A stretch of 64,000 nucleotides of DNA from Lingula anatina (lineage: Eukaryota; Animalia; Brachiopoda), in NCBI GenBank assembly GCA_051362555.1, contig CM120644.1, forward strand, positions 23,272,534 to 23,336,533. The letters run 5' to 3'. This document shows positions 4,239 to 62,873 of this stretch, one piece after another. The first letter of the stretch is position 1. Each line of letters opens with the position of its first letter. Under the pieces are notes generated by a model. The model was not told where the DNA came from. It searched no databases and saw only the letters and a list, made by a program, of their open reading frames with translations. Both the position numbers and the translations under genes were made by a program.

Positions 4239-4240
4239 AG

Positions 4241-18139: not shown

Positions 18140-18401
18140 GACCATTGAAACGCAAGACAGAGATATAAATGACAAGGAAAAAGTTGATCTTGCATCTGAC
18201 AATAAGAAAGATGCTATCGAATATTACGAAGCTGAAAAATTATTATACTGTAAAACTATAAAAAATAAACGTCATCACGAGGTCAAATGGAAGGGTTACA
18301 GGAATCCTACCTGGGAACCTGAAGAGAATATTTCAGATGAAGTACAGAGACATCATAACAATAAGACTTTACAAGGACGAAGGATAAAACGCAGAAATTA
18401 A
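18140..18401 (+). mobile_element. Chromodomain fragment, probably the integrase C-terminus of a gypsy-type (or Polinton) element
   Basis: YYEAEKLLYCKTIKNKRHHEVKWKGYRNPTWEPEENISDE followed by a basic tail. Confidence 0.75.
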
Positions 18402-26353: not shown

Positions 26354-27849
26354 TTTGCAGTTGTCAGGCCCATAAAAGTCATTGTCATATTTTTGAACTG
26401 TATGGTATTCGTATGCATTCAAGTACTAGCAAAAACTTAGGGAATTTTTTTCGAAAAAGTCTTGTGGACCATGACCACTCATTTATGAGTCAGAATGATA
26501 ATGCTTCTCCGCGCACAGCCAAGGCAACAGCTTCACGCCCATTTGGAAGAATTAACCAAGCTCGGCCGAACTTCTGGACAAGATTTAGCCTTGTTACAGA
26601 GCCGCTCACGGAGATTGGTTTAGAGATTATCCAAAGGGAAGAAGTCACCAAACAGACAACAAGTCAAACCAATTCAGAGCATTTATTTTTCTTTAACCAC
26701 CTTTTAATACAAGTTTCTAAGTACTCGTACTTATAATAATGAACAGTGCGTATGTCTGAATTTTTTTTTTTTTTTTTTCTTTTTTTTTTAATAAAATAAT
26801 TACAAAATCCTACTTTTGTTTGCAGCTCCACAATTGACTGGATGCACTAGACGTTTCAGATATAAACATCTTTTTTTACTTGATAATGCATTAACGGAAA
26901 TCCTCATTTTACACAGAAAAACACTGTCCAGATTATGGTCAAGCATAGACTTATACAATAAGATCAAGCAAATGTCCCGGTTGATTGGTGAGGAGGGCCA
27001 ATGGTCTTCTCTTTCAAGCTATACATTTTTGAAAAAAATAAATGTCATGACCGCTAGCCTTTCTTTAATTTCACAGTATACAGAATGATGTATTAATTAT
27101 TATAGTGTATTAAGTGTTGTATGAGTGGCAATTTATCGCTAGAATCATATTAAACTAAGAACGCTTAGTGTAAGCAAACAGTATGTAGTTTGCAGATCAT
27201 TTGATATCGCCTACTGATCTGTAAAGGCCCAGTCTGCACCAAGTAATGCAATAACGAGTGAATTCTTATCAGTTTAGGTATACACCCAAGTATTGGTACA
27301 ACACGACAGCTGACATCTCTTTAATTCATTTACGTTCATTCCAAAGACTCTAGGTTCTACATCAGTATTTTTGTTAACTGTGATTGATGTATTTTCAAAC
27401 TACGAATGGGTTGTGTTCATCGAATCAAAAACTGCTGATAGTGTGTGAGAAGCTTTTAGTAATATTTTAGCCGAAATCCAGCAATCCTACAAACAGATGC
27501 AGAAGCAGAATTTACAATTAAAACATTTCAGATATATTTGAAAGATAAAGGAAAAGCCTTTTTCACAACAAAGATGGATCAAAAAAATTGGCCGTTGAAC
27601 GGTTTAACAGAACATTGAAATCTCGCATGGACACATATTTCGCCGCCAACAGTACACTGGCATATTTATATGCACTCGACCAACTTTTAATAGGATAAAA
27701 CATGGCTGAACACTAGAGCATTGGTACAGTACATCACCAATGGAAGCGTCAAAATGAAAATAAAAATTCGGACGAGGAATGGAAAAACCTTTACATGTGT
27801 ATGAAATTTGAAAAAGAAAAGTTTAAATTCAAGGAGGGAGACACCGTAA

Positions 27850-30812: not shown

Positions 30813-31099
30813 TAAACTAGCCCGGCCAGTATAAAATAAATTCGGATGATGATGATTATTTACGTTGACCATCTATCTGAGCACTTCTCACCTGCGCATT
30901 ATCTCCTTCATCTTAATAATAATATAATAATATATTTATTTAAAGTCTAAAATCCATAAAATATGTTCTGTAGACTTTACAAACTAAAAACTAAAAACAA
31001 AGTTTAAAAGAAGAATCGACTTTACAAAATTGTGACCTAAGAGTCTGAGTTAAGATAAAGATGTCCAGTTAATGTTTTCGAGTTATAAAATGTTCTTTA

Positions 31100-32580
31100 A
31101 TAAAATTTGTTAAAAAGGTATGTTTTAAAGCTTTTTAAATATTCCACTGAGCTAATGCTTGTCAAGTCCACAGGTAATTTATTCCACTCATGTACTGCTA
31201 CGTACTGGAATGATTTTTCGCCAAAAGATTTTAGTCTTGCGTTCTGTGGTTTTAGTAATAATTGATCCTTAGATCTTAAGGTACGATTTGGTGTGTAATG
31301 AGATACAAGTTCACAAATACAATCTGGTGCAAGTCCATAAAAAGCCGCATGAGCGTGGGTTAAACGTTTGAATAAGATTTACAGGTAGCCAGTGAAATTG
31401 TTTTAATATCGGTGTCATGTGACTCTCCATAGAAGTTCGGGTAAGAAGACGTGCTGATATATTTGAATGCGTTGGACTTTCTTTGTTTTTTCTATGCCAC
31501 ATCCATAGAGCAAGGAGTTACAGTAATCAAGCCTTGATGTTACTAGGGCATGAATGACCGTGGCAGTAGCAGAATCTGTTAAATTATTTCGTAGGGAACT
31601 GATGTTTCTTATGTGATACAAACAAGTTTTTTTCACATTGGCTATCTGCTTGTCTATGTTTAAAGTAGTATCAAAATACACCCTCAGGTTTTTTGCATGA
31701 GGATAAACCCCAACTATTACAGATTCAATTTGTAGAGATAGTTCTTCAGCTAAGTGTTTTGAGTGTGGTCGAGAGATGACCATGAATTCTGTTTTTTCAT
31801 CATTTAATTTTAGTTTACTTTTGATCATCCATTCTCGCAAATCTGAAATGGCACAGGTCATTCTAGTTATTGCATCTCCAGGCTTAAGAATATCACAGTT
31901 AGGGTACAATTGGGTGTCGTCTGCATATATATGATAGCCAATTTGATGATATCGTAGTATAGTACCCAAGGGTAGTGTGTAAATGCAAAATTTAATTGGT
32001 CCAACAACGCTGCCCTGTGGAACACCAAAAATCATTTGCTCAAGATCTGAAAGTACACCGTTGATGGATATCTGCTGTGTTCTACCAGTGAGAAAGGACC
32101 GTAGAAGAGACAAAGCCTTGTCCTTAATTCCAGCTGATTTCTCAAAAAATGATAGAAGAGTGGCATGGTCGACTGTATCAAATGCTGCTGAAAGATCTAA
32201 TAGCACTAGTTAGACTGCAGAATGATTGTCAACACTAGTCAGAAGGTCATTTTTTTATTCTCAGAAGAGCAAGCTAAGTGTTATGTTTTGCGTTATGAGC
32301 AGATTGCATTTTTCCACTAAATTGTTCTGTTTCAGATGCTCAAAAAGCCTCGTTGCCATGACTCTTTCTACCAGCTTTTAAAAGAAAGATATATTACTCA
32401 CAGGTCTATAATGATTAAAGACATTATGATCCAAGTTATTCTTTTTCAGAAGAGGTTTGATTACTGCACTTTTGAATGAGTCTGGAGATATTCCCTTTCT
32501 TAAGCATAAGTTCACCAGTTATGTGATAGGATTTATGACAGTTGGTAAAATCTGGGTCAGCAATGTTGTTGGGATGGGGT
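31100..32580 (-). mobile_element. L2/CR1-group LINE reverse transcriptase, 5'-truncated pseudogene
   Basis: YRPVSN, LLDLSAAFDTVDH, GVPQGSVVGP, YADDTQLY, LKLNDEKTE, LVTSRLDYCNSLLYG, LKQFHWLPV, with frameshifts. Confidence 0.95.
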
Positions 32581-33441
32581 CTAAAGAACATGATGTCTTT
32601 TTTGAACTCGTAATGATTTTTGAGACTTCTGTTACAGTTGTCACACTGAACGCGGAGAGAGTGGATACTGGCCTCGGTAGAAGTTCGGTTATAGGTGGAT
32701 GTGATCCGGTGGATCCGGATAGGAGAGCAAATGTGTATGAGGCCCTGAAAATGACAGAATTTGTTTAACAAACAAATCCAGTTAAGTGACCAATTTACAT
32801 GAAATTTTCATGAGGCCCTGAAAAGGTCAGAGTCTGATTAAGAAAAGTGAAAAGGGGGGGGGGGTTAGTTCAACTTACTGAGAGAAATTCTATCTGATGG
32901 GTCCATGCTTATTAGGCTCAAGTTTGTATTGCCCCATGTCCGAAAGGTGTGCTCCAACCCGAGTGGCATTCAGCAAACAAAGTGAAAAATGATATTATTA
33001 TTACTATTATCATTATTATTGTTATAATTATAAGAACCAAACCCTCGATGATTGAGGAAACTAGTGAATGAAATGCCCTCTTAAGATGCTTGCCCGGTTG
33101 CCAGGGATGAACATCTAGAATTATGTCAGACTCCTGTCTTCGTTCTTAAGACTGTATGTTATCATGGGGTAAACTTTACATGAAGGTTTGAATCATGGTC
33201 TTATATACTACCGAGGAGACTGAATTTCCAAGATGAAGCAATTTATTTTGTTTTTGGAGGATTTCTTTATTTACACTCAAATATACGGCAAGTTGTCATG
33301 TTAGCCTCTAAAATAACCGATGCCCAAGATCATTATTAAATTGACGTATATTATAAAATGCGTTCTTCTATTTCAACCACTGGTCCTAAAAACATTACGA
33401 TTTTAAAAGCATGTCTAAGCTAGTGTGCATTTTTGAAACTC

Positions 33442-35030: not shown

Positions 35031-35199
35031 GACATGTCTAGTCTAGGGGAAGATAGAAGAAATTACTCATGTATGTACTTAAGGACGCGCGAACAGACTG
35101 GATATAATAAGATCCTCGATTCTTGTCCTTAAAGTGCGGGAATAATGATATTAATATGTCGTTACTTAAATATAACTTTTTGTTGTCTTTATTTGACAG

Positions 35200-35802
35200 G
35201 TTCCACTGCCCAGAATCACCAAAACGCCCCACCGTCTGGCATTTTACCTGATCCGCTCTCTAGTCAGTTAAACATTTCACGAACCAAGATATCCAAATAC
35301 GACGAATTTGCACAATGTTTGGCAAATTCACCCCAACGTGCGTACTATACAGTGGGTGTGAACAACAGCATTTTCTACTCCGTGACGAACCTAGTCCAAG
35401 GAACGTGGGAAACCAAAAAGACGGGTCGTGGGCGAGACACACGAAACCTTGACCACGCCCATATTGTGGTAAAGAAAGTCGAGGTCATCGTGAACCAACG
35501 TTTGAAAGAGCGTTATGAGACTACCAAGGATCAGCACCACATACGTCAAACACAGAGCCGTTTGAAACCTTATTATTACGTGGATCCTACGAAGAAAAAG
35601 CCCATGACCGCCGAGATAGATTCCCCTGTATTGAATACACTAAATGAGGACATCAATGAACATTACCTATTTCATGGAACAAAGAGTGCATATATACCAT
35701 CTATTTGCACAATGGGGCCAGATCTCAGGATCGCTGGAAGAGGAATGTTTGGTCGAGCAATTTATTTTTCAGAGAGCGCCACCAAAGCGGATCAGTACGC
35801 AG
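35200..35802 (+). CDS. PARP catalytic domain, exon A
   Basis: Acceptor ttgacag|gt, donor gcag|gtacgt. Encodes NEHYLFHGT (His) and GMFGRAIYFSESATKADQYA (Tyr), a tankyrase/PARP12-like signature. Confidence 0.92.
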
Positions 35803-37004
35803 GTACGTCGAGGCGGGCATGGAGTATGCCTACGTATGAACATATCTACAACTGCTCGTTTTAGTTTTCTCATTGCAGTATTTTGTTATTATTGTTGTCG
35901 TTTGTATTTTAGAAGTGGCGGCCAAACATACACCTCTTGAAAACTTTACAGGTATTTCGGGAAATAACAGTAAGCATAGTATACCTACTTGCACCCATGC
36001 ACATGAAATCAATAAAATATATTTATTATATTTCATTTTGCATTTTTATCTTCCTCCAGACAACATGGACGACAGACAAACGGAAGACCTTCAAATACTG
36101 ATTTTTCGCGTTCTTCTTGGAAATGCCTACTATTGCGAGGAACGACAGACATTTAAAAGACCGCCGTGCCTCTGTAGGAAAGAGATTTGCTGTGAGCATC
36201 ACGAGACCTTCGACTCCGTGATATGTGATACCAGGAAGTTATTCCGGGAATTCCTCCTGTTCACGGCGGAACAGTGTTACCCGGAATACATCGTGACCTA
36301 TGACCGGATTGACCAAATTCAGGCTAGAGGTAAGCAAAATCTTACAAGCGAATATTTAATCAATTAACCGATGGATCAGTAGTTTTATGATTTTTTTATT
36401 ATATTTCCTTCAATTATCATTTACATTTTAAAATGTTCATTACTCTTATAGATTACATGCAAAGTTAAAGAGGCCTTAAAAGTAATACTTAAAAGGACAC
36501 TTTTTGGAATTTTTCCGCAAAATATGATTTTTAGAGATTCTCTCCATGCCTAACCCACCCTCCCACAGTCATATTTATGTCATGTAAAGCTTCTTAAATT
36601 CTTAATAAATTCTTAATAATAAACAATAATAAATAAAAAATATAGTTTTTTTATATTTATTGTCTTGCATACATTCTTTGGGATAACGGATATATCTTCA
36701 GTGTTCAGTGACTCACTTAAACTAAAGTATCATATTTTGAATGAAATAAAACATCGAATCCAAGTGCAGGGATGGATCAAGCAATTACTCGTGAGTGGAA
36801 GAGATACGCTCTTTCCTCCAGGGAAATTAATTTTGTGGATAAATTCCATGGAGTTAGCCTTTAATCAGAACAATTTAAAATAAAAACACGACTTTTTGTG
36901 TTGCTTTTAGTCATGCCTCAACTTACTGTGACGTCACTTAGTGTGAGAGCTGCCGACCGTTGGCTGTTTATGAAGGAAGCCTACAAGGACGATGTATAGA
37001 TAAA

Positions 37005-37039
<35 letters not shown>

Positions 37040-37406
37040 ACTACTATACATTATATCACGGAAAATATGATCAATTCACTTTGGAAGAGTGCTCTACCCA
37101 TGGTGATTGGGCTTATAAACAACTTAGGGTGTTAAGGGTGTATTAAACATGGAGAAAACAGATTAACTATATATATTTTACAGCCTTCTTGGCACTAGTA
37201 GGTACTCAATTTGATGTCTACTTCAGGTCTACCAAAACTGTGGCCTGCCGCGTGGACGCGCTGTCATCATCAACAACATCAAATTCCAGCACCATGAGAA
37301 GAGAGACGGGTCAGAAATGGACTGTAAGGCGCTGGTAGAGCTGATGGAACAGATGAGTTATACCGTCATTGTGCATAATGATCTGACCGCAAAGGTGAGC
37401 TGGTGC

Positions 37407-37437
<31 letters not shown>

Positions 37438-37864
37438 TGAATGCATGTATGTGGCCGTGGGCATGTGCTTCTGTGTTCGTTCATTTGTGTATATATCTAT
37501 GAATTGGGAATACAGCTTCACGGTATGTTACAAAGTTATTACTAGAATGTATATCACACAATATGTACATCTAATGTGATGATTTTAGGGAATCTTTGAT
37601 GTGATGGAAACTGAAAGCAAACAACCTAGCCACTGGAACAGTGATTCCTTCATCGTGTTTATCCTGAGTCACGGTATGAGTAACGCAGTGCTCGGGACAG
37701 ATGGCAACTGTTTGCCGTACAGTATGATGTATATGCACTTTACCACCGACCGCTGCCCCGCCCTGGCGGGAAAACCAAAAATATTTTTTATTCAGGCGTG
37801 TCAAGGAAGTAAGTCAATAAATTAATTCAAATATACAATTTTGGCAGACTGGTTATGATTTCTA

Positions 37865-37900
<36 letters not shown>

Positions 37901-40702
37901 AACGATAGTTAACTGAAATTGGCATTACGAGTTTGTTATCATCAAGCATTTTGAAAACAGAATTAAAAAAGGCGACACAGCAGATTGATTAAAGTAATTT
38001 TCGGTGCTTAATATATCACTTTACCTTAAATCAAAACATTGTATTTATTTTAGAAAAGAAAGACAGTAGCATTCTGGGGGATCCCGACCCTCTTACAGTA
38101 AGACAAGATGGCGGTCAATCAGATAACACACGGTCGCTTTTAATTGAACACGAGACAAAATTTGTCGCTAACATGAGTGACATAGCGGTTGCCACGGCAA
38201 CCACTCCAGGTGGGCAAATCACTATTATATAAAAAAAATAATAATAACAGACTGAACTAAACTGGAACCTCATACCGAAGGAAGTTCATTAGTTTATTAG
38301 ACAATATTTTCGAATGTTTGAAAATAATTATGAAATAAACACTGATATTGCTGATTTTTTTTTTTTTACTAATTTCTCGTCCTGATAAATAATTCAGTTC
38401 TTGAATTTTTAAACTAACAGCAATTAAATGGTGTTGGTCAATTATACATTGGCTCATTTCAGACTACGTGTCCTGGCGAAATAAGGAGAACGGATCTTGG
38501 TTTATCAGCGCCATTGTTAGGGTGTTCAGTGAGGAGGCGAGGAGTAAACACTTTCTGGAGCTCCTGACCTCGGTAAATCAGTGACCAGGCTAGTAAAGGA
38601 GTTATTATGTAAACACATTCTAGAGCTCCTGACCTCGGTAAATCAGTGACGAGGCTAGTAAAGGAGTTATTATATAAACACATTCTAGAGCTCCTGACCT
38701 CGGTAAATCAGTGAGGAGGCAAGTAAAGGAGTTATTATATAAACACATTCTAGAGCTCCTGACCTCGGTAAATCAGTGAGGAGGCAAGTAAAGGAGTTAT
38801 TATATAAACACATTCTAGAGCTCCTGACCTCGGTAAATCAGTGACGAGGCTAGTAAAGGAGTTATTATATAAACACATTCTAGAGCTCCTGACCTCGGTA
38901 AATCAGTGACGAGGCTAGTAAAGGAGTTATTATATAAACACATTCTAGAGCTCCTGACCTCGGTAAGTCAGTGAGGAGGCAAGTAAAGGAGCTATTATAT
39001 AAACACATTCTAGAGCTCCTGACCTCGGTAAGTCAGTGACGAGGCTAGTAAAGGAGTTATTATATAAACACATTCTAGAGCTCCTGACCTCGGTAAATCA
39101 GTGAAGAGGCTAGTAAAGGAGTAATTATATAAACACATTCTAGAGCTCCTGACCTCGGTAAATCAGTGACGAGGCTAGTAAAGGAGTTATTATATAAACA
39201 CATTCTAGAGCTCCTGACCTCGGTAAGTCAGTGACGAGGCTAGTAAAGGAGTTATTATATAAACACATTCTAGAGCTCCTGACCTCGGTAAATCAGTGAA
39301 GAGGCTAGTAAAGGAGTAATTATATAAACACATTCTCGAGCTCCTGACCTCGGTAAGTCAGTGAGGAGGCGAAAGGTTAACATTATTTAGAGCCCCTGAC
39401 CTCGGTAAGTCAGTGAGGAGGTGTAAACGCTTTCTTAATTGCAGCATATCCCATAAAACAATAAATAAATGTGGGCATTTCAGATTACATAACTGCAAGA
39501 ATTGCACATGACATAACAGCCCTGCGAAGATTTTTGCCTTATCGCGCCGTTGAAAAATCCTCTTCTGCTTTTTGGCAATATTGAGACCAGTGCAAATTTG
39601 GCTGATATTTTCATATGTTACGTCTTTCATAACTTTTGTTAATAGTAGCAGGCGTTCTCGAGTACAGTGTTTATTAGTTCAAGGACAGACTGGTATTTCT
39701 TATAAAATACGTATTGCCAGCGACAGTTCGCCCCCCCCCCCCCCCTTTTTTTAACTTTCCCAAAATAGAGTAGTCTCAGGCTCCAGTTTGAATATAACCT
39801 GGCCCCCGTTTCACAAAAAAACTTAAGTCGGTTTCCCTGACTTAGGGCTTGGTTACCAACGTAATTAAGTCGTTACGTCACTAAGTCCCGTTTCACAAAG
39901 AATCTAAAAGGTCGCTTACGTCGTTTTTTTCTTAGCTGTAAGTCGACGATGTCAAGCCTCCTCGGGAGGAGACTTAAGTCGGCAAGCTCAACTAAAACTC
40001 GGTAAATGAGAGCATAAACAACAAAAATTTGGAAAGAACATACCTCCTTCAAGATATTGTGTTATAATATACTTGAATAGCACTGACATTTATGGAATAT
40101 TAAAATAAAAAATAAAATTCCACTTTACCCAGCCGATCGCGTGTTTGTTTATGTTTTTGACCGCTAGACGTCCCTTAGTAATGTTCCACGACAAGCTAAT
40201 GTTTAACTGTTACTTTGAAGTTGTATTGAAGTTAAACTAATCAATAAAGTTCAAAAACAAACTTTGTTTGTGTTTTGGCTGACTTTTATTGTTGATAAAC
40301 GATCGTTCTCGGCCGAAAGAGGCCATGAAACGTCATGTCTTGTGAAACTTTTGCAATTTTACACCTCCTTTTCTTGAAGAGTTTCTTGTGCGCGTCGACT
40401 ACGGTAAGCACGCCAAGCTAAGACGTTAGATTCTTTGTGAAACACTCCTAGTCGACTTCAGCTAAGTCGACCTAGCTAGGCCACTCAGCTCGAGCTAGTC
40501 GACTACGGATTTAAGATTCTTTGTGAAACGGGGGCCTGGGCATTTTCTGCTGATCGGCCTGCACTCTCAACGCAAGCATCTGCGGCTCAGCAGCAGTGCT
40601 TCAGTCACTGGCCATCGTCTCAGAGGAGTACCCTGCAGTCTCCATTTTCAATTATTGTTTTTATGTTGATCAGATTTTGTATTATATTCTAGTCACATCA
40701 AT

Positions 40703-40741
<39 letters not shown>

Positions 40742-42351
40742 TTTGTTTGTTTGTTTGTTTGTTTATTTTGTTCTTGTTGTTTTAAATATTCGATCAGTCC
40801 GCAACATTAGGTCTGGCGAGTCGGACATCAACATCAACGGCATGAAAGAAAGACGATTGAAAGCAGCAAGAACGGGGCGCCTGGCTTCTTCTTTTACAAA
40901 ACCAGTATTAAAAGCAAAATAGACTATTCAAAAAGAAAAGAGGAGAACCCATAATTTATATCAGATTAAAGAAGTAACTACATTGAAGACAGAATGCGAA
41001 ACGGCAAACAACACTTACATCGATACCTTTGAAGACGACGACGCCACTGAAGCAGCCCAACTTGGTTCGTATAAGTGGCAGGAACATGTACGCACTGTTT
41101 ACGGGATATTTCAGAGATTATTCACATAAATGAACTCCAAAAGCCAGCCAAAGAGCCCTCCGTATCACCTACTCAAGCACCAAAACCAATTGTCGCATGG
41201 ATAGATGAGCTCACACCACATCGTGGGACTGTTTTACCTGTTGTATAATGACTTAACAGAAAGGACTTTTGAAGAATTGTTTCCCAAATGTGTTTTCGAA
41301 AAAGAGTATCCATTGCCCCATTCAACAGATCAGCCCTTGATTTGCGGAGTTTTTTCACCAGAAAATACACAAACAAATTTAGACATAGATCGCTAGTGGT
41401 CCGCAATTTTTTGGAGCGTGTGACAGATGTCCCGACTACCAAAGACCGGGCTGGGGTACAACTAGAGTCAATTTATGTCAACATCCAGGAGAGCTTGGTT
41501 ATTCTAAAGATGACGTATAATGGGAGCAACGTTATGAATCTAGAAACACCAAGATATTACTCTCTGGGTCTTCCACTATGTTGACCCGAATGGTGTTGCA
41601 TTCTGTGAGCAACCCCCAAACCAACTTTGGTTGATTTAGAAGAATGGTGATCAGACAGAGGACAGGCATGCTCAGATCCAGTTTGACCAGAAAATCATGT
41701 GCCAATTTAGACGTTATTCGGTAACAATACAGTGGAAACATTTATATACATTTCTAACGTCTAATTAAGCCATAGCCCTCAAGTGCTTCCAATCCCTGTA
41801 CTGCGAGCTAAAAATTAACCCACTGCATTCCCTTAGCTACTCTGACATCATCGACACATGGCTGGGGAAAGATTCCAGCACGAAAATGCAGAAGTATCGA
41901 AGTAGCAAAGAAACATTAACGCAGTAGTGGTGTGGAGCATATTTGCAGTAGAAATGCAGCATAGCCTACTGCAATTCTACTCAAAAAAGTGTCAACGGCA
42001 GCATCAGCGGCTCAGCAGCAGTGGTTCTCTCACTGGCCATCGTCTCAGCGGTGCACCCGGTACAAAAGGAATGGCAGCCCTAGTAACACAAGTCCTAGGT
42101 CTAGCGTTTTTGGAATGGATGCATTAGGACATGCGTTACTAGGATTTAACGTCCGTGGGACAGCAGTTACTAAGGAATCCAAGTCCCATGGTGAGGAATT
42201 AAAGTCCGGATGAAACCTGTTTTCCTGATTTATACTAGGGATTTATGTCCGCCCTGACTTTTTCTCGCACACTTAAATAAAAGTTATATATAATGAATAA
42301 TAATATATGTAATAAAATTGTATATATATATATAATTTTATTACATATATT

Positions 42352-42428
<77 letters not shown>

Positions 42429-43480
42429 TAGGTAAAAAAAATATTAGGTGTCATATAAAATATGAAGAAGTGTGAAGTGAGGTGTGTCGCTATGAATTAA
42501 CTGAATACCATGTTTGTTGCACTGCCGCATTGTGTTAAGTGCAGTGATTTAATTGGGTAGTGCTCCTATGGGCTGGTCAAAGCTTGGTTTTGGCAAAACA
42601 TGGTTCTGTCAAAGAAGTAAGCATATGTCAGCAACTGATGCATAAAAGAATTTAAAATTCTGCATGCAAGCGGTCGGGTTTGCTGTGCTTTAAATGACAA
42701 AAGCAGTGTTTTACAAAATTGTTAATCTGTGCCAGAATGGTGCAAAAAAGACAGACATTGCCAGACAGCTTGTGTTAAACGGAATGGTCTGCACATTTTT
42801 ATAAAGTTATTCCCAGACTGATGTACCTACATAGAGTACACGCCAAGTGTATTGAAACCCCACCACCAGGGTACAGGACTCACTGCCCTTCCTGATATGC
42901 CTCTGCAACTAAACAAGTACCACCCAGTCCGTTCGGAATGAGGGGCAAATTAACACCAGAGCGCATTTTTCAAGGCCCTTACCAAACGTCAAACTGGTTT
43001 TAGCAGGTTAGAATACCAAACGAACTCTTCGGAAGTCACTATAAATAGCGTAACATCGACGTCTGTTTCTCTAATGAATTAGGGACCGTTTCTGGTTCGA
43101 ACATTTAAATCGTGTTGCTTTCTTCACTGAGGTCAGATTTCACCTGTACTACTCAACTTGTCAAAATTTTACGAGTTTACAGACATCCTGGAGAGGCCTA
43201 TGACGGAGCGTGTGCCGCGTCTAAAGTGACTAGGGACAGTGTCAGCTTCAGTATTTGGAGTGGATACCACACTGGTGCCAAAACACCAAAGGTAGTCATA
43301 TGTGAAAACCTGAACCTCATCAAATAAAGGAGTTATCTGGGAACCACCTGACTGTTATTTAATAGGGGGCACCGTAGGAAAAATTTAAGGTTGCACGATG
43401 AGATTCCCGTTCACACAGAGCACTTTCAGTAGCAAATCAACGAACGAAGGGAATGAACAGCTACCTTGGTCATATAAATC

Positions 43481-43540
<60 letters not shown>

Positions 43541-44516
43541 AACCACAGACAATATGTGGGTAGGTCATTACTCGCCTTATCAACGGCCTGCATGTCCTAC
43601 AACAAAACTGAACCACAAGATTTGACCAATTCCTTGCCGCTTCAGAGCCCTGGTAGCAGCCAGATAAGGTCATGTGTAACCGGGTCAGGCTTATCCGTTG
43701 CTGTGACTAGACACTGACTTATGGGTCCTTTGTGGGGCGTGTAACTCTTTTACGGATGATAATTGGGAAATAAGGCGATCCAAAATATCGCTTTTAATAG
43801 TTGTCGTATTACTTAGAATAGGGAATGTACTTTTGCTTGCTTTAGTGGCGAATTCAATTAATGAGCTGTTGTCACAATGACGTCATAGAGTTTATTAAAA
43901 GTCATAAAACACGATTTCAATACTTATTTTCATTTAGCATATCAGCAAAACAGGAAAAAATGATGAAAATGGTTTGGAAAAAATATTTTTTTCCTTTAAA
44001 TGTCAAGTCTGTATACATTAGCATATTGATATGCTACCCTTGTCTGAAAAGAAAAAACAAAATAGAAAAAAAAAAAAAAAAAAAAAAAACAAAAAACAAA
44101 AAAAAAAAAAAACAAGTGGTGCCTGGGATATATAAGCCGTTGTGCAAATAAAATACTCCCAGATTCAAAAGGCTGGCACACATATTTTGACACTACTGAC
44201 ATAGACCTTACTAAAAACTTTATGAGGATTTCTCTATTTTTAGTACCGAGTCTGACACATAGCTAACTAATATAATCATTTACCCATTTAGTACAGTGTT
44301 GCTGTTGAACTTGTGGGTTATGTGTAGCTCATATTTTACATCAAATTTCGCCTCTTTGTGGTATTTCAGGTGAACAGAGTGGTTGCCAGTATGAAGACCC
44401 AAGGTCAAGGTCAATACCAGCAGGTGTCCAGCATGGAAACCATGTCCTTAACCAAACGGTTTTACTTCTGGCCCCGCCTCTGTATGGTCAACAATGAACT
44501 CCTTGAGCTTGATTAG
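35200..44516 (+). CDS. Multi-exon PARP (ADP-ribosyltransferase)-caspase fusion gene, 5' end not identified
   Basis: Eight exons with GT/AG boundaries: 35200-35802 (phase 1-1), 36060-36329 (1-1), 36911-36993 (1-0), 37227-37394 (0-0), 37589-37808 (0-1), 38054-38209 (1-1), 38463-38572 (1-0), 44370-44516 (0-stop TAG). Total 1757 nt plus 1 upstream nt = 586 codons with no internal stop. Confidence 0.78.
36060..36329 (+). CDS. PARP catalytic domain, exon B
   Basis: Acceptor cctccag|ac, donor agag|gtaagc. Encodes IFRVLLG...RPPCLCRKEICCEHH...FDSV...LFREFLLF (Glu)...QCYPEYIVTY. Confidence 0.92.
36911..36993 (+). CDS. Linker exon between PARP and caspase domains
   Basis: Acceptor ttgcttttag|tc, weak donor gat|gtatag. 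83 nt converting phase 1 to phase 0. Encodes VMPQLTVTSLSVRAADRWLFMKEAYKDD, loosely like the segment preceding the Y-x-x-x-x-x-PRG start of caspase large subunits. Confidence 0.68.
37227..37394 (+). CDS. Caspase large subunit, exon 1
   Basis: cttcag|gtc ... aag|gtgagc. Encodes VYQNCGLPRGRAVIINNIKFQHHEKRDGSEMDCKALVELMEQMSYTVIVHNDLTAK. Confidence 0.92.
37589..37808 (+). CDS. Caspase large subunit, catalytic exon
   Basis: ttttag|gga ... ggaa|gtaagt. Encodes FIVFILSHG (His) and CPALAGKPKIFFIQACQG (Cys). Confidence 0.95.
38054..38209 (+). CDS. Caspase intersubunit linker and start of small subunit
   Basis: tttag|aa ... ccag|gtgggc. Encodes KKKDSSILGDPDPLTVRQDGGQSD...ANMSDIAVATATTP. Confidence 0.88.
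38463..38572 (+). CDS. Caspase small subunit exon
   Basis: catttcag|ac ... tcg|gtaaat. Encodes DYVSWRNKENGSWFISAIVRVFSEEARSKHFLELLTS. Confidence 0.92.
38527..39422 (+). repeat. 65-bp minisatellite built from the caspase exon 3' end and its splice donor, about 13 units
   Basis: Unit gtaaatcagtgacgaggctagtaaaggagttattatataaacacattctagagctcctgacctcg, period 38573 to 38638. Confidence 0.95.
39802..40535. mobile_element. Harbinger-like MITE with CTG TSD, in the last caspase intron
   Basis: gcccccgtttcacaaa / tttgtgaaacgggggc, flanked by ctg on both sides. Confidence 0.88.
44370..44516 (+). CDS. Caspase terminal exon
   Basis: tttcag|gtg. Encodes VNRVVASMKTQGQGQYQQVSSMETMSLTKRFYFWPRLCMVNNELLELD*, with the typical caspase C-terminal SLTKxFYF. 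Confidence 0.9.
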   Translation: MNRVVASMKTQGQGQYQQVSSMETMSLTKRFYFWPRLCMVNNELLELD

Positions 44517-45690: not shown

Positions 45691-45920
45691 TAATCTTACG
45701 AGAATTAAATCAGTTATCGATAATACGCGTACCAATAGTCGTGTTTTTTTTAGCTATACGGTACATTCACACCTGCATAAAATCGGCTTTAAAAACTAAA
45801 TAAACGTAAGAACTTTTTTTCATTACTCAAAAATGACTTTTGGGCACCTAATGGATAGTTTTAACCCGTTTTTTCATCACAGTATACCTTTAATGTATTT
45901 TATGAAATAAAAAATAAAAA

Positions 45921-48900
45921 AACAAGGCAGCAAAGCTGTCAAATGTACAGACAAAAAACAGAAAAAAAAGATGCAAAATAGGAAATTCTGTCAATTTTGA
46001 TGCAATAATAAATGCTTATAATAGCACAGTCAGTCAACACTGATTTTTAATCATGCACAACAGGTAACATGGAGCAGATCCAGAGATATTTTCTGACAGT
46101 ATTCCAAAGTATCTTTGTTGATCCATCCTCCATTTTTATGGTCTTCCAACAGAAACCTGTTAATATAAACTTTAAAATCTGACTGTCTTCCAGGAGACCC
46201 AGAAGATGGTCTCAATCCACCCCTTCAATAAGAATACAGTTTCAGGACCATGAGAGTTAAAATTCACATGATGAAAGTCCCAATATATGAAAAATGATGA
46301 CAGTGCATAAAATAATATTACAGCGTGTTTAAAGACATAAATACCAATACAACTGCTTATGTGGAAATACTGAAAATGTGCAGAGCCTCAGGTGGATGGG
46401 AGTTAAAAATCACATCTTAAAAATGCCAGTGTTGGAGAAAAAATTAAAATGAAAACAACAAAAATATAATTCCTATGAAGCTGCTATTCACTGCTTCCTT
46501 ATTATGGACACTATGTTATCTAGCACAGAGCTTAACCTTTGGGAGTTTACAGGGAAATATCACCAAGTGTGCTTTATGAAATTTCATTTAATGGCCACTT
46601 AATTAGGTAAATGAGTTTACAGCACTTAAATTAGCCTAGTGAATACCCAAGGGGAATTTACAGACTGACCACACAATTTGTCTATCAAAGGTCTTCAGGC
46701 CCATAAGTCACACCTTAAGAAAAGCAGAAAACAATAATGCACAAAAAAAACAGGAGACTGCCAATTCTGATGCAATAATACATTATGTTTAACTGCACAG
46801 TCAACATCAAATTTTAATTTTGCACAACAGGTAACACTGATGAAAGTAAAAGCATAAGGCTCCAGGCCCATCAGAGTTAAAGTTTACAATTAAAAAGTGC
46901 CAGAATGAGTAAAATGAAAATTTCACAAAAAAATTCATAAATTTAATAAAAATGATAATCCAATAGAGCTGTTCTCTAATATATATGTATGTCAATCCTA
47001 AGAATCATTCTTGTAAGAATAGTTAAAAAAAATAGAAAGTAACACTTTACTTTACATAATATTAATGGTGGCAGAGCACAAAGTAGGTTTTTTGTCAATT
47101 TTGATGCAACATTACATAATGATTAACTAATTAAATACCACCAATTTTAAAATATCTACTATTAAAAACATGGACATTAAGAAAACTGATTACCACTGGA
47201 CTTCATGCCCAAGGGAGCTCTAAGTCCCATATTGAAAATTGCAACATGTGAAAGATAAAAATTTTCACAAAAATCCTGTATTACTTCCAAACAATTAACT
47301 AATGAGACAATTTTTCAACTGAAGCTGTAATTCAGTCCTATGTTTCTTTCCTGTAAGTGTGAGAAGAGCAAGTGACATGGTTTTCCTTTCACCACCATAC
47401 GGAGGCAGTGCCCAGAATAGGGTTTTGTTAAATTTTGATGCAATATTACACAATGCTTAACAGCATAATAACCATAATTTTTTTAATAATAAAATAAAAG
47501 TATCATGGATATTCAGAAAATGTGACTAGCCCAGAGAGTTCAGAGTCATACTTTGGAAATCCCAAAATGTAAACAAGAGAAAACTGTATTGAAAGAGTTT
47601 ATTTCCATTTTCAACACCTTTTTTACATAAAGCAAAGTAATTAATTTACTGTCATTTTTATATGATCAATAAAAAAATATGTTCTCAAAGCAAAAATATC
47701 AATAGAAGAATTATAAATTTCCAACTTGCTCCATTCTGAGATTCTGAACATAGTGAATGGTTGAATCTGACAAACTGTAAAGATATGTTTTTTTCCCCAT
47801 TTTTGACACTTATTACACAATACACAATATCAAGTTTACCATCATTTTTATATAATCAACTAACAATGTTGTTAAGATGCAGTAAATGTCAAAAGAACAA
47901 CTTAACATATCTAATTAGTTCAAAAATGAGACTGTTAACATGCCTGAGAATTAAATTTGAGGAAAAAACACTTATATACAAAAAAAAAAAAAAAAAAAAA
48001 GGCATAACTTAACCAAACTTTAACTGATCAAGCTTATTTTCAAAACTTAATCTGTATTTCAGTAACACTGATCACTACTGTGAATTTCAAGACAATTGGC
48101 CAAAATGTGTTATAGGTGTTGCATATATGCTGAAAAAAAGTGAAAAAACAGCAAAACTTTTATAAAAATGCCCTGATCATGCCAATTTTGGAACTTGACT
48201 TGCGTATTATAGATATTCATTAGTTCTGTAAGTTTCAAGCCAAAAAGTAAAGCAGTTCTTCACTTATCGTGTTATCAGGGTTGCATATATGCTGAAAAAA
48301 GTGAAAAAAACAGCTGACTTCCATAAAAATGTTCCTATCATGCTGATTTTTGAACTTGACCTGCGTATTATGAATATTTTCCATTTCTGTAAGTTTCAAG
48401 CAAAAAGGTAAAATGGTTTTTCAAATATTGTGTTATCAGTGTTGCATAAATGTTGAAACAAGGCAGCAAAGCTGTCAAATGTACAGACAAAAAACAGAAA
48501 ATAATGATGCAAAATAGGTCATTTTGCCAATTTTGATGCAATAATAAATAATGCTTATAATAGCACTGTTAGTCAACACTGAATTTTAATCATGCACAAC
48601 AGGTAACATGGTCAATAACAGGAGCTGACCCAGAGATATTTTCTGACAGTATTCCAAAGTATCTTTGTTGATCCATCCTCTATTTTGTTGATCTTCCAAC
48701 AGAAAAAAATAATAAATATCAGTCAATATAAACTTAAAAATCCGAACGTCTTCCGGAAGCTGACCCAGAAGATGGTCTCAATCTATCCCTTTAATAAGAT
48801 TACAGTATCAGGACCATGAGAGACCAAAGTCACATGATGAAAGTCTCAATATTTTAAAAATGATGACAGTGCATAAAATAATATTACATAATGTTTGAAA

Positions 48901-49071
48901 ACATAAATAACATACAACTGCTTATGTGGAAATACAGAAAATGTGCAGAGCTTCAGGCGGTTAAATATCACAAATGCAAGTGTTTTTGAGAAAAAAGTTA
49001 TTAAGGAAAATAAACAAAACTAGAAAAACACTCCGAGAGTGCAGACCTCTGCCCAGGCAGCAATTGTTGAT

Positions 49072-49105
<34 letters not shown>

Positions 49106-51827
49106 TATACATATATATATTACCTGCATAATTTACCTCCATAATTATCACTGCTTCCTTATTATTAATCTAGCAGAGAGCTTAACCTTTGGGAGTTTAC
49201 AGGGAGATATCAACAAGTGTGCTTTATGTAATCTCATTTAATGGCCTATTAATAATCAATTAGGCAAATTACTTTATAACTCAGAGCTAAGCTAAGTGAT
49301 ACCCAAGGGAAATTTACAGACTGACCCTCTCAAAGACCCTTCAGGCCCATAAGTCACATCTTAAGAAAAGCACAAAACAATAATGCACAAAATAGGAGAC
49401 TACCAATTCTGATGAAATGATACATTATGTTTAACTGCAAAGTCAACATCATATTTTAATTATGCACAGCAGGTAACACCGACCAAAGTAAAAGCATAAG
49501 GCTTCAGGCCCATCAGAGTTCAAGTTTATACTTAGAAAGTGCCAGAATAAAAAAATGAAAATTTCACACAAAATTGCATAAATTCAATAATAAACGATAA
49601 CCCAATTGACCTAGCTTTCTAATTTTAACTGCATGCCAATCCTAAAAATCATTCTCATAAGTTAAAAATAATAATAAGTAACACAGTTTTCTTTTCATAA
49701 TGTTTGCAGTAGCAGTGCAAAAAGATTATTGCAAATTTTGATGTAACATTGCATAATAAATTATAGAATAATTATCACCAATTTTTGATTATTGATTACA
49801 AATAGCATGGACATGTAGAAAATTTGATTACCATTCGGCTTCATGTCCATGGGAGCTCCGAGTCCCACAATGAATATGCCAAAAAGTTAATGAATATTTC
49901 ACTCAAATGTATAACTTCCAGAAAAAGAAGCCAATTAGACTGCTTTTCCAACTCAGGCTGCATTTTAGTACAGTGTTTCTTTTTTTAAGGTTTGACAGTC
50001 ATAAGTAACACGGTTTTCCCATCATGGTCATCATGGCAGCAGCACCAAAAATTGTGTTTTCTTCTATTTTGAAGCAACATTACATAATGCTTAACAGCAT
50101 ATATGACCATCAATTTTTATTTAATAGAATATTAGTAACATGGACTTTCAGAAAACATGACAAGCAAAGGTCTTCAGAATCACCTTGGAAATGCCAATAA
50201 GTGAAAAATTAAATTTTCACAAAAAACTGTTTAACTGCCAGAAAAAATTACCAAACAGACTGCATTGCCTACTGAAGCTGTATTTTAGACCCATATTTCT
50301 TTCCTGTAAGTTTGATAACAGTAAGTGACATGATTTTCTTTAAATGGTCATCATGGGAGCAGTGCCCAAAATATGGGTTTCTTCGAATCTTGATGCAATA
50401 TTACATAATGTTTAACAGCATAATGACCATCAATTTTTAATCATAAAATATTAGTATCATGGATATTCAGAAAATGTGACTAGCAAAGATCTGCAGGCTC
50501 ATGGAACTTCAAAGTCACATCTTAAAAATGCCAAACTGTAAAAAAGACAGCACTGTTCTGAAATGGGTTTATTTCCATTTTAACACTTTTTAAACAAAAC
50601 AAAATAAACAGTATACTTCCATTTTTATATGACGAACTTAGAAAATTGATGAAATGGGAAAATATCAATAGAGCAGTGTTAAATGTCCAATTTCCTCCAT
50701 TCTGAGATTCTGAACATAGTTGATGATTGAATCTAAAAAACTGCAATATGATATGATATGAGTTTATTTCCATTTTTGACACTTTATTACACAATACACG
50801 ATATCAAGTTTACCATCATTTTTACATAATCAACTAACAATGTTGTAAAGATGCAGGAAATATCAAACAAACACTTTTACGTATCTTATTAGTTAAATAA
50901 TGAGACTGTTAACATGCTTAAGAATTGAATCTGAGGAAATGTGAAAAAACAGCATAACTTCTAAAATAATGGCCAGATTATGCTGATTTTCCAACTCAAC
51001 CTGCATTTTAGTAAGATTGACCATTCCTGTAAGTATAATGACAATTGGCTTATCTGTTTTTCTTATATAGTGTTATCAGTGTTGCATATATGTTGAAAAA
51101 AAGTGAAAAAATAGCATAACTCCCCTAAAAATGGCTTGATCATGCTGATTTTCGAACTTGATCTGCGGATTATGAATCTTCATCAGTTTTGTAAGTTTGA
51201 AGCCAAAAAGTAAAAAACGGTTTTCCACTTATCGTGTTATCGGTGCTGCATATATGCTGAAAAAAGTAAAAAAAAAAAACAGCATAACTTCCCTACAAGT
51301 CACCCGATCATGCCGATTTTCGAACTTGACCTGCGTATTATGAATATTTATCAGTTCTGTAAGTTTCAAGCCAAAAAGTAAAATGGTTTTCCACTTATCA
51401 TGTTATCGGTGCTGCATTTATGCTGAAAAAAGAGAAAAAATAGCCTAAATTCACTAAAAATGTCCCAATCACGCTGATTTTCGAACTTGACCTGCGTATT
51501 ATGAATATTCATCAGTTCTGTAAGTTTCAAGCCAAAAAGTAAAACAGTTTTCCACTTATCGTGTTATCGGTGCTTAATTTATGCTGAAAAAAGTGAAAAA
51601 ACAGCATAAATTCCCTATAAGTGACCCGATCATGCTGATTTTCGAACTTGACCTGCGTATTATGAATATTCATTAGTTCTGTAAGTTTTAAGCCAAAAGA
51701 AAAAACAGTTTTCCACTTATCGTGTTATTGGTAAAAGTGCATGGCGACGGCGACGACGGCCACGACGGCGACGACAGACGCAGATGACGGCTATATGTAC
51801 AGACACATCTGTGTCTGTACATAAAAA
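45921..51827 (+). mobile_element. Helentron-associated (HINE-like) non-autonomous element with a ~2.5-kb internal duplication and ~161-bp tandem repeats
   Basis: Starts aacaaggcagc...atgtacagaca (repeated at 48457). Ends with a (gacggc)n microsatellite, the perfect hairpin tatgtacagacac-atct-gtgtctgtacata and an A tract. The 5' atgtacagaca matches the hairpin arm. Confidence 0.75.
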
Positions 51828-52823: not shown

Positions 52824-54164
52824 CTACGTTGGTGTAATCAGTGAATACTTTTTATCGACCTGAAGCATTTTATAAATTCGATCACATGCCACGGTGGGAT
52901 TTTTCTCGCCAAATATGGGGAATCCATGCGATTTGTAATACGACAACAATCGGTTCACATCCTGGTAGTGTCTTTCTTGGGCCTTCATACAGCCCGGGTG
53001 CCAGGTCCAGTCGGTGAACTCAAAATTAAACAGGTCTCTTTGAATGACGCTCCTACTGAAAAATCTACAGTGATTCGGGCACATTTCGAAGCCACCGGAA
53101 TAGCAAATCCCCATCAGAAGAGCTTGAGGGTAGTAAGTTTCCCTGTCGTACGGTGTTTTCAACAGTTCCTGTTTGGGTACTGTCTGATATTTCCAATGCA
53201 TTGAAGTTCTAGCGATGGGGGATAGTTCCTCCGTCGTAAAATTTTCTTTGTAAGTTTTGAGAGGTGCTCTCCCGGGGAGTTCGGCTTTGAAGTCTCCGTT
53301 TGGGCGCATTTGGATGCGAAAGATGTATTCCTTGCGATGGAGAGTGTATATACACTGACACATTATGCTGAATTGAGAAAAGAGATTGTCGACTGATATT
53401 TCTTTAATGATTGCATCGAAAGATTTCTTATGTAACCGCTCCAAGTAATGGCGACATTCAACAACATGTTTTACTTTTATGATGACAGGAAAGTATGACA
53501 TGCATTTCATGACTTCTCCAGTCCCGAATAAATTGTAATGCTTCATTGTTGTCATTCCCCATTCTTTCGTCAGAAACTGGCCAATGACGCCGACCACGAT
53601 AGGTTTGCCGTCTCTGAAAAGGTCTTCCGGCGTAACAACCGTAACGAACAGAGTGTCTGTATCCACGTAGCCAACGTACTCGGCCTTGGTGTAATTTTCG
53701 GGATAAAACATCGACCGCTGCATACGGCTTGGCCCTCGATGGTTGTATATTTCTGGGTAGGGGTCTTCAAAGAAAACCTTCGGAAAAGGCGGGCTGTCTC
53801 TTATCGTTGCTTCCAACGCATGGTCCTCTTTCGATTCATTGTCTAAGATAACCATCACACGAATATGACGCGGCCAGAAAAGCATCAAGCTGGGTTTGAA
53901 GATCTTCTCGTAAAGATGATGGTGTTTGTGGTACATGCGAAGGAACAGTTCAAGCGTCGGAACAGAGTCCCAGACACCTGGGATATTGGAGTTAGACCCG
54001 CTAGCACTAGTACCTGCCGGCGCCCCTTCATCCACGACGTGGCTTGGTCCTCCGGAGAGACTTTGGAGCGGGGGCGTTGTTTTCTTATGCATTGTTATTA
54101 ACAATACCATAATGCCCCCTATCGCCACACCGATACATAATCTTATTAGTAGCGTACTTCTCAT
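52824..54164 (-). CDS. Intronless type II membrane protein with DxD motif, putative GT-A fold glycosyltransferase-like
   Basis: 446-aa uninterrupted ORF with an N-terminal hydrophobic anchor (LCIGVAIGGIMVLLITM), a Ser/Gly/Pro stem, YVGYVDTDTLF and several Cys in the lumenal part. Confidence 0.8.
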   Translation of the reverse strand: MRSTLLIRLCIGVAIGGIMVLLITMHKKTTPPLQSLSGGPSHVVDEGAPAGTSASGSNSNIPGVWDSVPTLELFLRMYHKHHHLYEKIFKPSLMLFWPRHIRVMVILDNESKEDHALEATIRDSPPFPKVFFEDPYPEIYNHRGPSRMQRSMFYPENYTKAEYVGYVDTDTLFVTVVTPEDLFRDGKPIVVGVIGQFLTKEWGMTTMKHYNLFGTGEVMKCMSYFPVIIKVKHVVECRHYLERLHKKSFDAIIKEISVDNLFSQFSIMCQCIYTLHRKEYIFRIQMRPNGDFKAELPGRAPLKTYKENFTTEELSPIARTSMHWKYQTVPKQELLKTPYDRETYYPQALLMGICYSGGFEMCPNHCRFFSRSVIQRDLFNFEFTDWTWHPGCMKAQERHYQDVNRLLSYYKSHGFPIFGEKNPTVACDRIYKMLQVDKKYSLITPT

Positions 54165-54315
54165 GACTGTACATGTGGTTTCATTTCAAAACCAGCAGAG
54201 CGTTTTTTGTAGCAATACCTGAGTACACCAGTCGAAAAGTCACTGCAAATTATAAACAGATCGCTAGATGTCCACCTTTCCAAAGAGAATGTTGACACGG
54301 CTTACACACTTCGGG

Positions 54316-54545: not shown

Positions 54546-55232
54546 GACCGCAACAACAACAACACTGGGTTAAAAATATCAGACAGTAAACCTAAAACAC
54601 GGAACAGCGGAACAACGGAACAGCGGAACAGACTATAATGCGGAACATTGTTACTGTGGAACACACGACGCAGGAACGGAACAGCATAAAAGACGGAACG
54701 TTTAATTGTTGTGACTGCTGGCTTGCGGAACCAACAGTGCGGAACGGCCTTAGAAAACAAACGCTCCAATAACAACCAAAGAAAATTGTGACGTCACAGA
54801 TAACTTAGACTATTAATAAATTTACAATTACAAGTAAACAAGAAAATATTTTTACTAAATAAAAATATCAAAATTATAAATATGCGTCAGCTCATTGTTT
54901 TTTATCAATAAATTCCTGAAATTACATTAGTTTTTATTTCAATGGTGATTAATCTTTTATCGTAGCAAATTAAACCCTACCATTGTATAAGTCATAGACG
55001 TTTGAGAGTGTATAAAGTGGCTAAATTACAGCGAATAAGGAAAGGATGATGTGTTTTCTATCTCACCCCACCAATACTCACTACTGTCTTTTATGTTTCT
55101 TTTCTCTTTTCAATAAAAATTAGAGATATTTGTTGTTTGTTTTCCTATTTGCAAACTGTGGAGTCTACGTCATAATCGCTATCACCATAATGCTACAATA
55201 GCACTAGCAGCGGCAACGCTTAGAGATGCGCG

Positions 55233-55690
55233 ATGGCGCAGAGAATGGTTGATACAATATCTGAAAAAAACGCCCCGCTAACAACAGATAAAGTGTGTCG
55301 ACTATTTAATCACACTGAGAAAGTGGACGTCATTCCGTTTCGACCAAAAGGAGGACAAACATTTGTTTTCAAAGCCAATTCGGAGGCGGAAAAAGAAGAC
55401 TGGAGGGCAGACGGCCATAGGTGGACAAACGGCAGTTCTAAAAAATTACCTAGGAAACAACCATTATACAAAAAATCATACTTTTATGCAAAGGGTGCAG
55501 ATGGAAAAGCCACCGTCATGCAGTTGTCCACTGAAAGATGGGTGCGTGCACCTTATGGCAGTGCCCATGAGCATCAATTTGCCATTAGAGAAATCAGGCC
55601 TCAAAAACTTATCAACTGTCAGGAAAAACGCAAGAGGGCCGAAAAGAGCAAAGCCTGGAAGGAAAAAACCTCGGGTGGGTGATGTATGTG
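55233..55690 (+). pseudogene. Transposase remnant: CG-1-like DNA-binding domain joined out of frame to a SWIM finger
   Basis: PFRPKGGQTFVF...EDWRADGHRW, then in another frame CSCPLKDGCVHLMAV...KRAKPGRKKPR. Confidence 0.72.
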
Positions 55691-56047
55691 ACACCGGAAC
55701 GGAACACTTAGCTCTAGACGCGGAACAACAGAACAACTACCACGGAACGGAACACATAGACATCGCCCACGGAACGGAACACTTAACTCTGGACGCGGAA
55801 CACAGAGACAACGGCTACGGAGCGGAATACTTAACTCGGGACACGGAACAACGGAACAATGACCACGGAACGGAACGGAACACATAGACATCGACCACGG
55901 AACGGAACACTTAACTCGGGACACGGAACAACGGAACAATGACCACGGAACGGAACACTTAATTAACTCTGGACCACGGAACGGAACACTTAACTCACAC
56001 AGACATCGACCACGGAATGGAACACTTAACTCTGGACGCGGAACACA
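55690..56047 (+). repeat. Degenerate coding tandem repeat (HGTEHLTLDAE-like) built on cacggaacggaacac
   Basis: Repeated units read directly. The reading frame breaks near 55885. Confidence 0.85.
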
Positions 56048-62754: not shown

Positions 62755-62873
62755 GTAATGTATTCTTCAGAAAAGAATAACATCTGCAGTGTTATTGCAC
62801 TGTTGATAGAAGAAAAATCGTATAGCCATGCTAGGGTGACATAAATCTATCCTCAACCGTCACCTCCTCTCTG

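Follow-up and report, generated by a model that had tools for sequence, protein, structure and literature searches.

A divergent member of the Lingula PARP-caspase fusion family in a 64,000-nucleotide window of Lingula anatina DNA

The closest described relative of the gene reported here is XP_013395828.1 of the brachiopod Lingula anatina, which has been placed in the caspase-Y clade as a member with a PARP catalytic prodomain replacing the CARD (PMC11463336; Genome Biol Evol 2024). In the portion of that article available to us, "PARP" occurs three times in the main text, never in a functional sense, and no active-site, transcript or functional analysis is given; the article hypothesizes that caspase-Y acts in immunity and cautions that the unusual prodomains of annelid cases may come from chimeric gene predictions. 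Caspase-Y itself was defined in an article that, in its available portion, gives no function for it (PMC10959488), and no functional study of the fusion was found in the literature searched, most subscription journals being outside its coverage. We analyzed a stretch of 64,000 nucleotides from L. anatina (assembly GCA_051362555.1, contig CM120644.1, positions 23,272,534 to 23,336,533 of the forward strand; hereafter the window, to which all positions below refer), in which positions 35,200 to 44,516 hold a gene that joins a PARP-type ADP-ribosyltransferase (ART) domain to a complete caspase. A first-pass annotation of this DNA had put the architecture forward as novel; as XP_013395828.1 is already in print as a PARP-prodomain caspase (PMC11463336), this part of the annotation falls, and the window gene is a new, divergent member of an architecture that is in print and still uncharacterised.

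Family, gene structure and transcripts

With exon 1 of the window gene as query, we retrieved an L. anatina protein carrying both PF00644 (PARP) and PF00656 (Peptidase_C14), and its 90% cluster comprised five L. anatina members on five contigs, one of which (P0032) is truncated before the catalytic His. Some of these five loci may be uncollapsed alleles rather than paralogues. The window model is identical to the two longest copies at 466/584 and 468/584 positions, the latter value (80%) being that for XP_013395828 (P0029); the database copies are 90-97% alike, whereas the window copy is ~20% divergent from them. Because five L. anatina proteins follow the window model over their whole length or in part, the join between the exons is not due to chance. 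The fusion family is almost certainly real. Only the five Lingula copies matched both halves among the 332 retrieved proteins, in which no non-Lingula protein held both domains together; among the best 150 representatives of 9,486 matches in all, 1 matched both halves, 41 the PARP half and 108 the caspase half. Distant independent fusions may exist beyond the retrieved matches. A search of the ESM Atlas returned only generic caspase and macro-PARP clusters, with feature scores (0.75-0.76) that serve as leads only. The neighbouring open reading frame (ORF) at 52824-54185 shares 99% identity with L. anatina LOC106150368, so that the simplest source of the window is L. anatina itself, its gene being, judged from sequence, a divergent paralogue; a source in another species was considered for the 20% divergence and rejected on the basis of this one neighbouring gene.

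When spliced computationally, the eight exons of the window gene, all of them AG/GT-ended and in phases 1,1,0,0,1,1,0, yield a single open frame of 584 codons plus a stop, as the first-pass annotation had claimed. All exons lie on the + strand. Exon 1 (35200..35802) is an internal exon with a phase-1 acceptor, and encodes a short N-terminal stretch followed by the first half of the PARP/ART domain, including H158 (35673-75), Y188 (35763-65), K195 and Y199. Exon 2 (36060..36329) supplies the second half of the ART domain with the C237/C239/C244 cluster and the catalytic E264 (36248-50), and extends seven codons beyond the end of stand-alone relatives, up to a phase-1 donor; the 83-nt exon 3 (36911..36993) links the ART to the caspase. 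The caspase large subunit begins in exon 4 (37227..37394), which carries the S1 arginine R344, and continues in exon 5 (37589..37808) with the catalytic residues H402 (37670-72) and C445 (37799-801), the latter in QACQG. The intersubunit linker, with a predicted autoprocessing site RQD466/G (38107-09), and the start of the small subunit are found in exon 6 (38054..38209), VSWRN (R505) and GSWF of the small subunit in exon 7 (38463..38572), and the end of the small subunit, the stop codon and a C-terminal tail in common with Lingula Roc-COR-caspases in exon 8 (44370..44516). The model opens at a splice acceptor (position 35200) and therefore lacks both its 5' end and a start codon; the earliest in-frame Met is residue 135, within the ART fold. 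An unproven candidate start exon with an ATG, 12 codons and a phase-1 donor (35034..35070, + strand) borders on an interspersed repeat; neither reads nor homology supported it.

The further claim that a PARP domain precedes a full caspase with both active sites intact was borne out by the H-Y-E triad and by all seven motifs in place, i.e., HGT (H158), GRAIYF (Y188), FREF (E264), EKRDGS (R344), SHG (H402), QACQG (C445) and VSWRN (R505). In exon-by-exon searches, Pfam matched PARP on exon 1 (E = 9 × 10-10) and Peptidase_C14 on exons 4, 5 and 7 (E = 1 × 10-9, 7 × 10-18 and 6 × 10-8, respectively), while exons 2, 3, 6 and 8 matched no family on their own. The caspase half, of family PF00656, has the dyad formed by H402 in SHG and C445 in QACxG, an intersubunit linker bearing Asp residues (D466 and D471), and R344, Q443, R505 and S511, which align with other caspases and which we take to form the Asp-specific S1 pocket. 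The His, Tyr and Glu of the ART half align in register with active tankyrase. The open frame and the catalytic residues are common to all database copies that reach them, and H-Y-E, K195, Y199, M182 and the three Cys, a cluster predicted to bind zinc, are retained in all six copies (five database copies and the window copy). Both halves are probably catalytically active. Tankyrase-type ankyrin repeats and a SAM domain before the ART were absent from the full-length sister copy P0029, which holds PARP and C14 only and leaves no room for them; also absent from P0029 were a CARD prodomain and the macro, RRM and KH domains that are present in the nearest ART relative (P0197).

Structures were predicted for the halves of sister copies separately and compared with known structures by Foldseek and a second aligner. 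ART residues 1-240 of P0030 were modelled confidently, and the model matched tankyrase 2 over 189 residues (Z = 22.8, root-mean-square deviation 1.9 A). The model of the P0031 caspase half shows a large and a small subunit with the caspase fold and matched CED-3 and caspase-3/7 with target template modelling scores of 0.86-0.91; it is confident except for the intersubunit linker, which is likely flexible. A joint PARP-plus-caspase alignment was dropped, as the caspases were misaligned (~13% identity).

Transcripts were examined in raw-read RNA runs with the same species label (eight of nine listed runs, 6-30% of each; runs X1-X3 are stranded), with loose read letters translated by eye. Read depth in X1-X3 tracked the exons on the sense strand, to which the junction reads into and out of the linker exon also belong. 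Sister-copy reads covered 35313-35802 and then spliced to exon 2 (47, 4, 56 and 43 junction reads in X1, X8, X2 and X3, respectively); 27 of the reads listed for X1 ran from exon 2 into linker-exon sequence, and 36, 3, 6, 54 and 44 reads in X1, X7, X8, X2 and X3 joined the linker exon to exon 4. Reads also contained the joint from 38206 to 38460 (exon 6 to 7; GT..AG), and 18 reads in X1 joined exon 7 to the homologue of exon 8. The loose ends had median lengths of 49 and 60, overlapping within the 83-nt linker exon; exons 2 and 4 are hence connected by two read sets that overlap in the linker exon, none being shown as one spanning read. The loose letters encode the residues of the database copies, not those of the window copy. 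Depth over exon 4 ranged from ~130 (X2) down to 0 (X5), which indicates that expression of the sister copy differs widely among samples. The splicing of sister-copy reads from PARP to linker to caspase disfavours an annotation chimera. The expectation that transcripts cross the PARP-caspase junction thus held at the family level, through the sister copy, while the window copy went undetected in the runs sampled; the spliced fusion was observed for the sister copy only.

Origin of the two halves

Among representatives at 50% identity, the best single-stretch match on the PARP side was L. anatina XP_013397857 (RRM-macro-KH-PARP, 45%) and that on the caspase side L. anatina XP_013407220 (Roc-COR-caspase, 46%). 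In a quick PARP tree of 78 rows, the six fusion copies formed a clade with a support of 100 and grouped with XP_013397857 and one further RRM-macro-KH-PARP at 98. The fusion clade was likewise recovered at 100 in a quick caspase tree, built without bootstrap from 50 rows chosen from 196 caspase-bearing proteins and without labelled caspase-Y references; the caspase half is nearest to the Roc-COR-caspases by score and by its tail.

The family to which the ART half belongs is lophotrochozoan and is marked by H-Y-E, by KADQY and by a cluster of three Cys that does not vary. In 75 of 83 PARP-bearing proteins, no more than 10 residues separate the end of the ART match from the C-terminus, and the fusion accounts for five of the eight exceptions; the nearest relative, XP_013397857, ends in YDRV, and the fusion reads YDRI followed by seven codons to the phase-1 donor. 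Two database proteins stop just after KADQYAG, as the window gene would on read-through into intron 1, which suggests that intron 1 is shared with those proteins and hence that the duplication may have taken place at the DNA level. In the origin that we propose, a PARP14-like gene (RRM-macro-KH-PARP) would have contributed its last, catalytic exons, which would have exchanged their stop for a phase-1 donor and come to be spliced to the caspase exons from a Roc-COR-caspase; two effector ends would thus have been joined and both sensor ends dropped.

Lophotrochozoan macro-PARPs (mollusc, annelid and brachiopod), a large family with a PARP14-like layout, keep the catalytic Glu and the three Cys, with all three motifs present in 65 of 83; vertebrate PARP14 lacks this catalytic Glu. 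One retrieved protein of 1,154 amino acids (P0196) has five tandem PARP domains. Roc-COR-caspases (P0198, P0203, P0205, P0220 and P0036) were seen in at least five Lingula database proteins and in an Owenia protein, the latter combining Bcl-2, Roc, COR and caspase domains in a single chain; neither the Bcl-2 domain nor the Lingula Roc cases are mentioned in the available portion of PMC11463336.

Proposed mechanism and alternative explanations

Initiator caspases are activated by being drawn together via their prodomains. We propose, with a probability of roughly 45%, that the fusion is an immune initiator caspase to which the PARP domain stays attached, clustering the protease, and which cuts itself at RQD/G. 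The ART would take the place of COR or CARD as proximity module, and might act in one of two ways: it could modify itself with ADP-ribose and be collected by relatives that bear macrodomains, or it could rely on ART-ART contact, for which PARP15 dimers and tankyrase filaments offer precedents (PMC12572374, in its available portion); the clustered caspase would then dimerise, autoprocess and cleave after Asp. Clustering driven by the ART is, taken by itself, a tentative proposal. The layouts of the two parents, together with the hypothesis, in the accessible text of PMC11463336, that caspase-Y acts in immunity, make a role in immunity or cell death plausible. Between the window copy and P0029, the caspase core is identical at 189/203 residues and the intersubunit linker at 23/40 (P = 1 × 10-7), and identity around D466 (10/12) exceeds that in the remaining linker (13/28; P = 0.04, for a segment picked after viewing the alignment). 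The conserved RQD/G would suit intersubunit autoprocessing, and the ART probably stays attached, as no good prodomain-shedding site is conserved.

Several observations weigh against this reading. The donor gene of the ART half is PARP14-like in layout, and, according to the portion of PMC12572374 available, the ART domains of PARP14 and PARP10 formed no stable dimer. In the caspase tree, the grouping with Roc-COR-caspases was weak (81-83), as was deep support. The PARP half (113/135 identical to P0029) diverges faster than the caspase core (189/203; P = 0.007), which would also fit an arms-race bait or relaxed constraint. As regards the window copy, it was itself returned by neither homologue search of protein databases, and the first 45 residues of the sister copies had no homologue in positions 1-35199, the best scores there lying inside the shuffled range. 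The linker-exon donor at 36993 is weak (0.9 bits by a crude matrix; of the 3,649 GTs that the window contains, 34% score as well), and a transcript that runs past it would meet a stop after one codon. A 65-bp unit that reproduces the 3' part of exon 7 along with its donor is repeated in a tandem array (38545..39427, no strand assigned); 14 donors result, of which 5 exceed the coding donor in strength, and use of any later array donor adds a stop three codons beyond exon 7. Of 2,983 placed reads, 19 were at least 99% alike to the window, and almost every read carried the coding differences listed (e.g., 113/113 and 114/114 at 35663); because the reads carry the residues of the database copies, it is the sister copy that is expressed as a fusion.

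Those that concern the window copy bear on the possibility, a serious one that we place somewhat below even odds, that the family is functional and the window copy silent or recently disabled, having lost its first exon or promoter or giving a PARP-only or C-terminally truncated product. Such a copy would account for the lack of reads clearly derived from it in the eight runs, for the missing start exon, for the weak 36993 donor with its immediate stop and the 13 extra donors after exon 7, and for its absence from the protein databases searched, even though an annotated L. anatina protein matches its neighbour at 99% identity. Against it, no stop or frameshift occurs over 1,755 nt of the window copy, in which 4.4% of single changes would create a stop; the frame would stay open after 5% neutral divergence with P = 0.02, and after 2% with P = 0.22. 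Moreover, no rate excess on the branch of the window copy was found in 10 outgroup tests, the identity of its caspase core to P0029 contrasts strongly with that of the linker, and the sequenced animals may lack this copy, the sister copy itself being near zero in some runs. Differences between reads and window fell at third codon positions in 36 of 71 cases (best-supported differences listed), a count that we do not read as a ratio of nonsynonymous to synonymous rates. Overall, we consider it about an even bet that the window copy makes the full protein. That PARP and caspase are two adjacent genes joined on paper only is very improbable and, for the family, largely refuted: AATAAA does occur five times in intron 2, where repeat-derived reads also lie, a transcript continuing past exon 2 would meet a stop after 12 codons, and prediction chimeras are warned of for annelids in the text seen of PMC11463336, but junction reads lie on either side of the linker exon, the same join is found at five separately annotated loci, and few donors in the window are stronger than that of exon 2.

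Two other accounts, both unlikely in our view, keep the fusion and change its logic. Another platform might activate the caspase, which would then cut off the ART and leave it to drain nicotinamide adenine dinucleotide (NAD+) or modify targets. Here DRID (D282-D285) at the domain border is retained in six of six copies, with D285 in sequence gained by the fusion; DRID, however, precedes Gln and lies at the end of the last ART strand (strand 223-234 of the model), and in four of five database copies the other linker Asp (D306) is followed by Pro, before which caspases are not known to cut. In caspase-3 and -8, the prodomain is removed about eight residues before a conserved Tyr, a position at which the fusion has no Asp. 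With no conserved Asp that could serve for prodomain removal at the customary site, the effector released by self-cleavage appears the weaker of the two mechanisms that the first-pass annotation had offered. Alternatively, the ART might be an integrated bait that mimics its antiviral PARP14-like parent, so that a pathogen factor binding or cutting it trips the caspase and ART catalysis is incidental. The faster divergence of the ART half, the multi-copy state of a family confined to Lingula among the retrieved proteins, and the joining of caspase domains to RIG-I-like receptors in Lingula (PMC8998645, in the text available) are in keeping with a bait, whereas the retention of H-Y-E, K195, Y199, M182 and the three Cys in six copies, despite a long shared branch, is what a working enzyme would show.

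Returning to the attached, clustering PARP domain, we regard as rather doubtful the fuller scenario of an ADP-ribosylation-gated caspase, in which a brachiopod cell-death protease would be activated by its own NAD+-consuming enzyme. In that scenario, the protease would have been put together from two effector ends, one of a PARP14-like antiviral gene and the other of a Roc-COR-caspase, before duplicating and diversifying, and the window copy would represent a diverged second subtype. Mammalian caspases cleave PARP1 and thereby stop NAD+ loss. One protein with both activities intact would invert this relation between caspase and PARP1, and would offer a concise way to ask if an initiator caspase can be switched on by ADP-ribosylation. 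To a single unvalidated line in print, the present analysis adds evidence from transcripts, the number of copies, the intact state of both active sites and the probable parents, which makes the fusion a testable target. It is one genus's invention amid many odd lophotrochozoan prodomains (ankyrin, kinase, TIR, Roc and Z-binding), and its general weight is at present modest.

Neighbouring features and comparison with known systems

The 35 kb upstream of the gene are dense in transposon relics. These include a broken long interspersed nuclear element reverse-transcriptase relic (31097-32807, - strand) and, at 1298-1707, 4232-4708 and 27483-27849, integrase-like fragments (by eye) with a weak adenovirus-protease-like match (E = 0.012), possibly Polinton relics; an ankyrin-repeat exon of another gene (6768-7112, - strand) and a chromodomain fragment (18090-18401, + strand) also lie upstream. 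On the other side, a tandem duplication of ~2.5 kb with 77-85% identity occupies 45920-50940, and 50444-51417 recurs at 63038-64000 as a 978-bp inverted copy (89%) containing 161-bp repeats. The single-exon ORF at 52824-54185 (- strand; 446 amino acids) matches no Pfam family and by eye resembles a membrane-anchored DxD glycosyltransferase; its relatives have a patchy distribution (Lingula, one mussel, Hydra and many metagenome contigs). An ORF at 55224-56862 (+ strand), with a Ulp1-type protease and a PHD finger behind 27-80 bp repeats, is likely transposon-borne, and an exon at 62472-62780 (+ strand) resembles, by eye, zinc alcohol dehydrogenase without a Pfam match.

Among known systems, XP_013395828.1 and four near-identical relatives share with the window copy the domain order, with the ART directly before the caspase, and the linker, and fall with it into one clade (100) in both trees; the window copy differs from this group in being ~20% divergent, in its N-terminal exons not being found and in being unseen in RNA. 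The lophotrochozoan macro-PARPs (XP_013397857; mollusc proteins with PF01661 and PF00644) have ART domains 38-45% identical to that of the fusion, with H-Y-E, KADQY, PPC-x-C-x4-C and a C-terminal TYxR in common; in them the ART comes last, behind RRM, KH and macro domains, whereas in the window gene it comes first and those domains are absent. The catalytic domain of human tankyrase 1/2 is the best structural match, with H-Y-E and the GMFG loop aligned, but the fusion lacks the ankyrin repeats, the SAM domain and the tankyrase zinc motif, and has a different Cys cluster further on. In human PARP15, a mono-ADP-ribosyltransferase with macrodomains and no protease, the ART domain can serve as a dimerisation module (PMC12572374, in its available portion), to which the Lingula ART is likened by analogy. 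The closest caspase domains (40-46%) are those of the Lingula and Owenia Roc-COR-caspases (XP_013407220, XP_013401300, XP_013412607 and CAH1786849), two of which have a WP..C.NGE-type tail like that of the fusion, in which the ART replaces Roc-COR.

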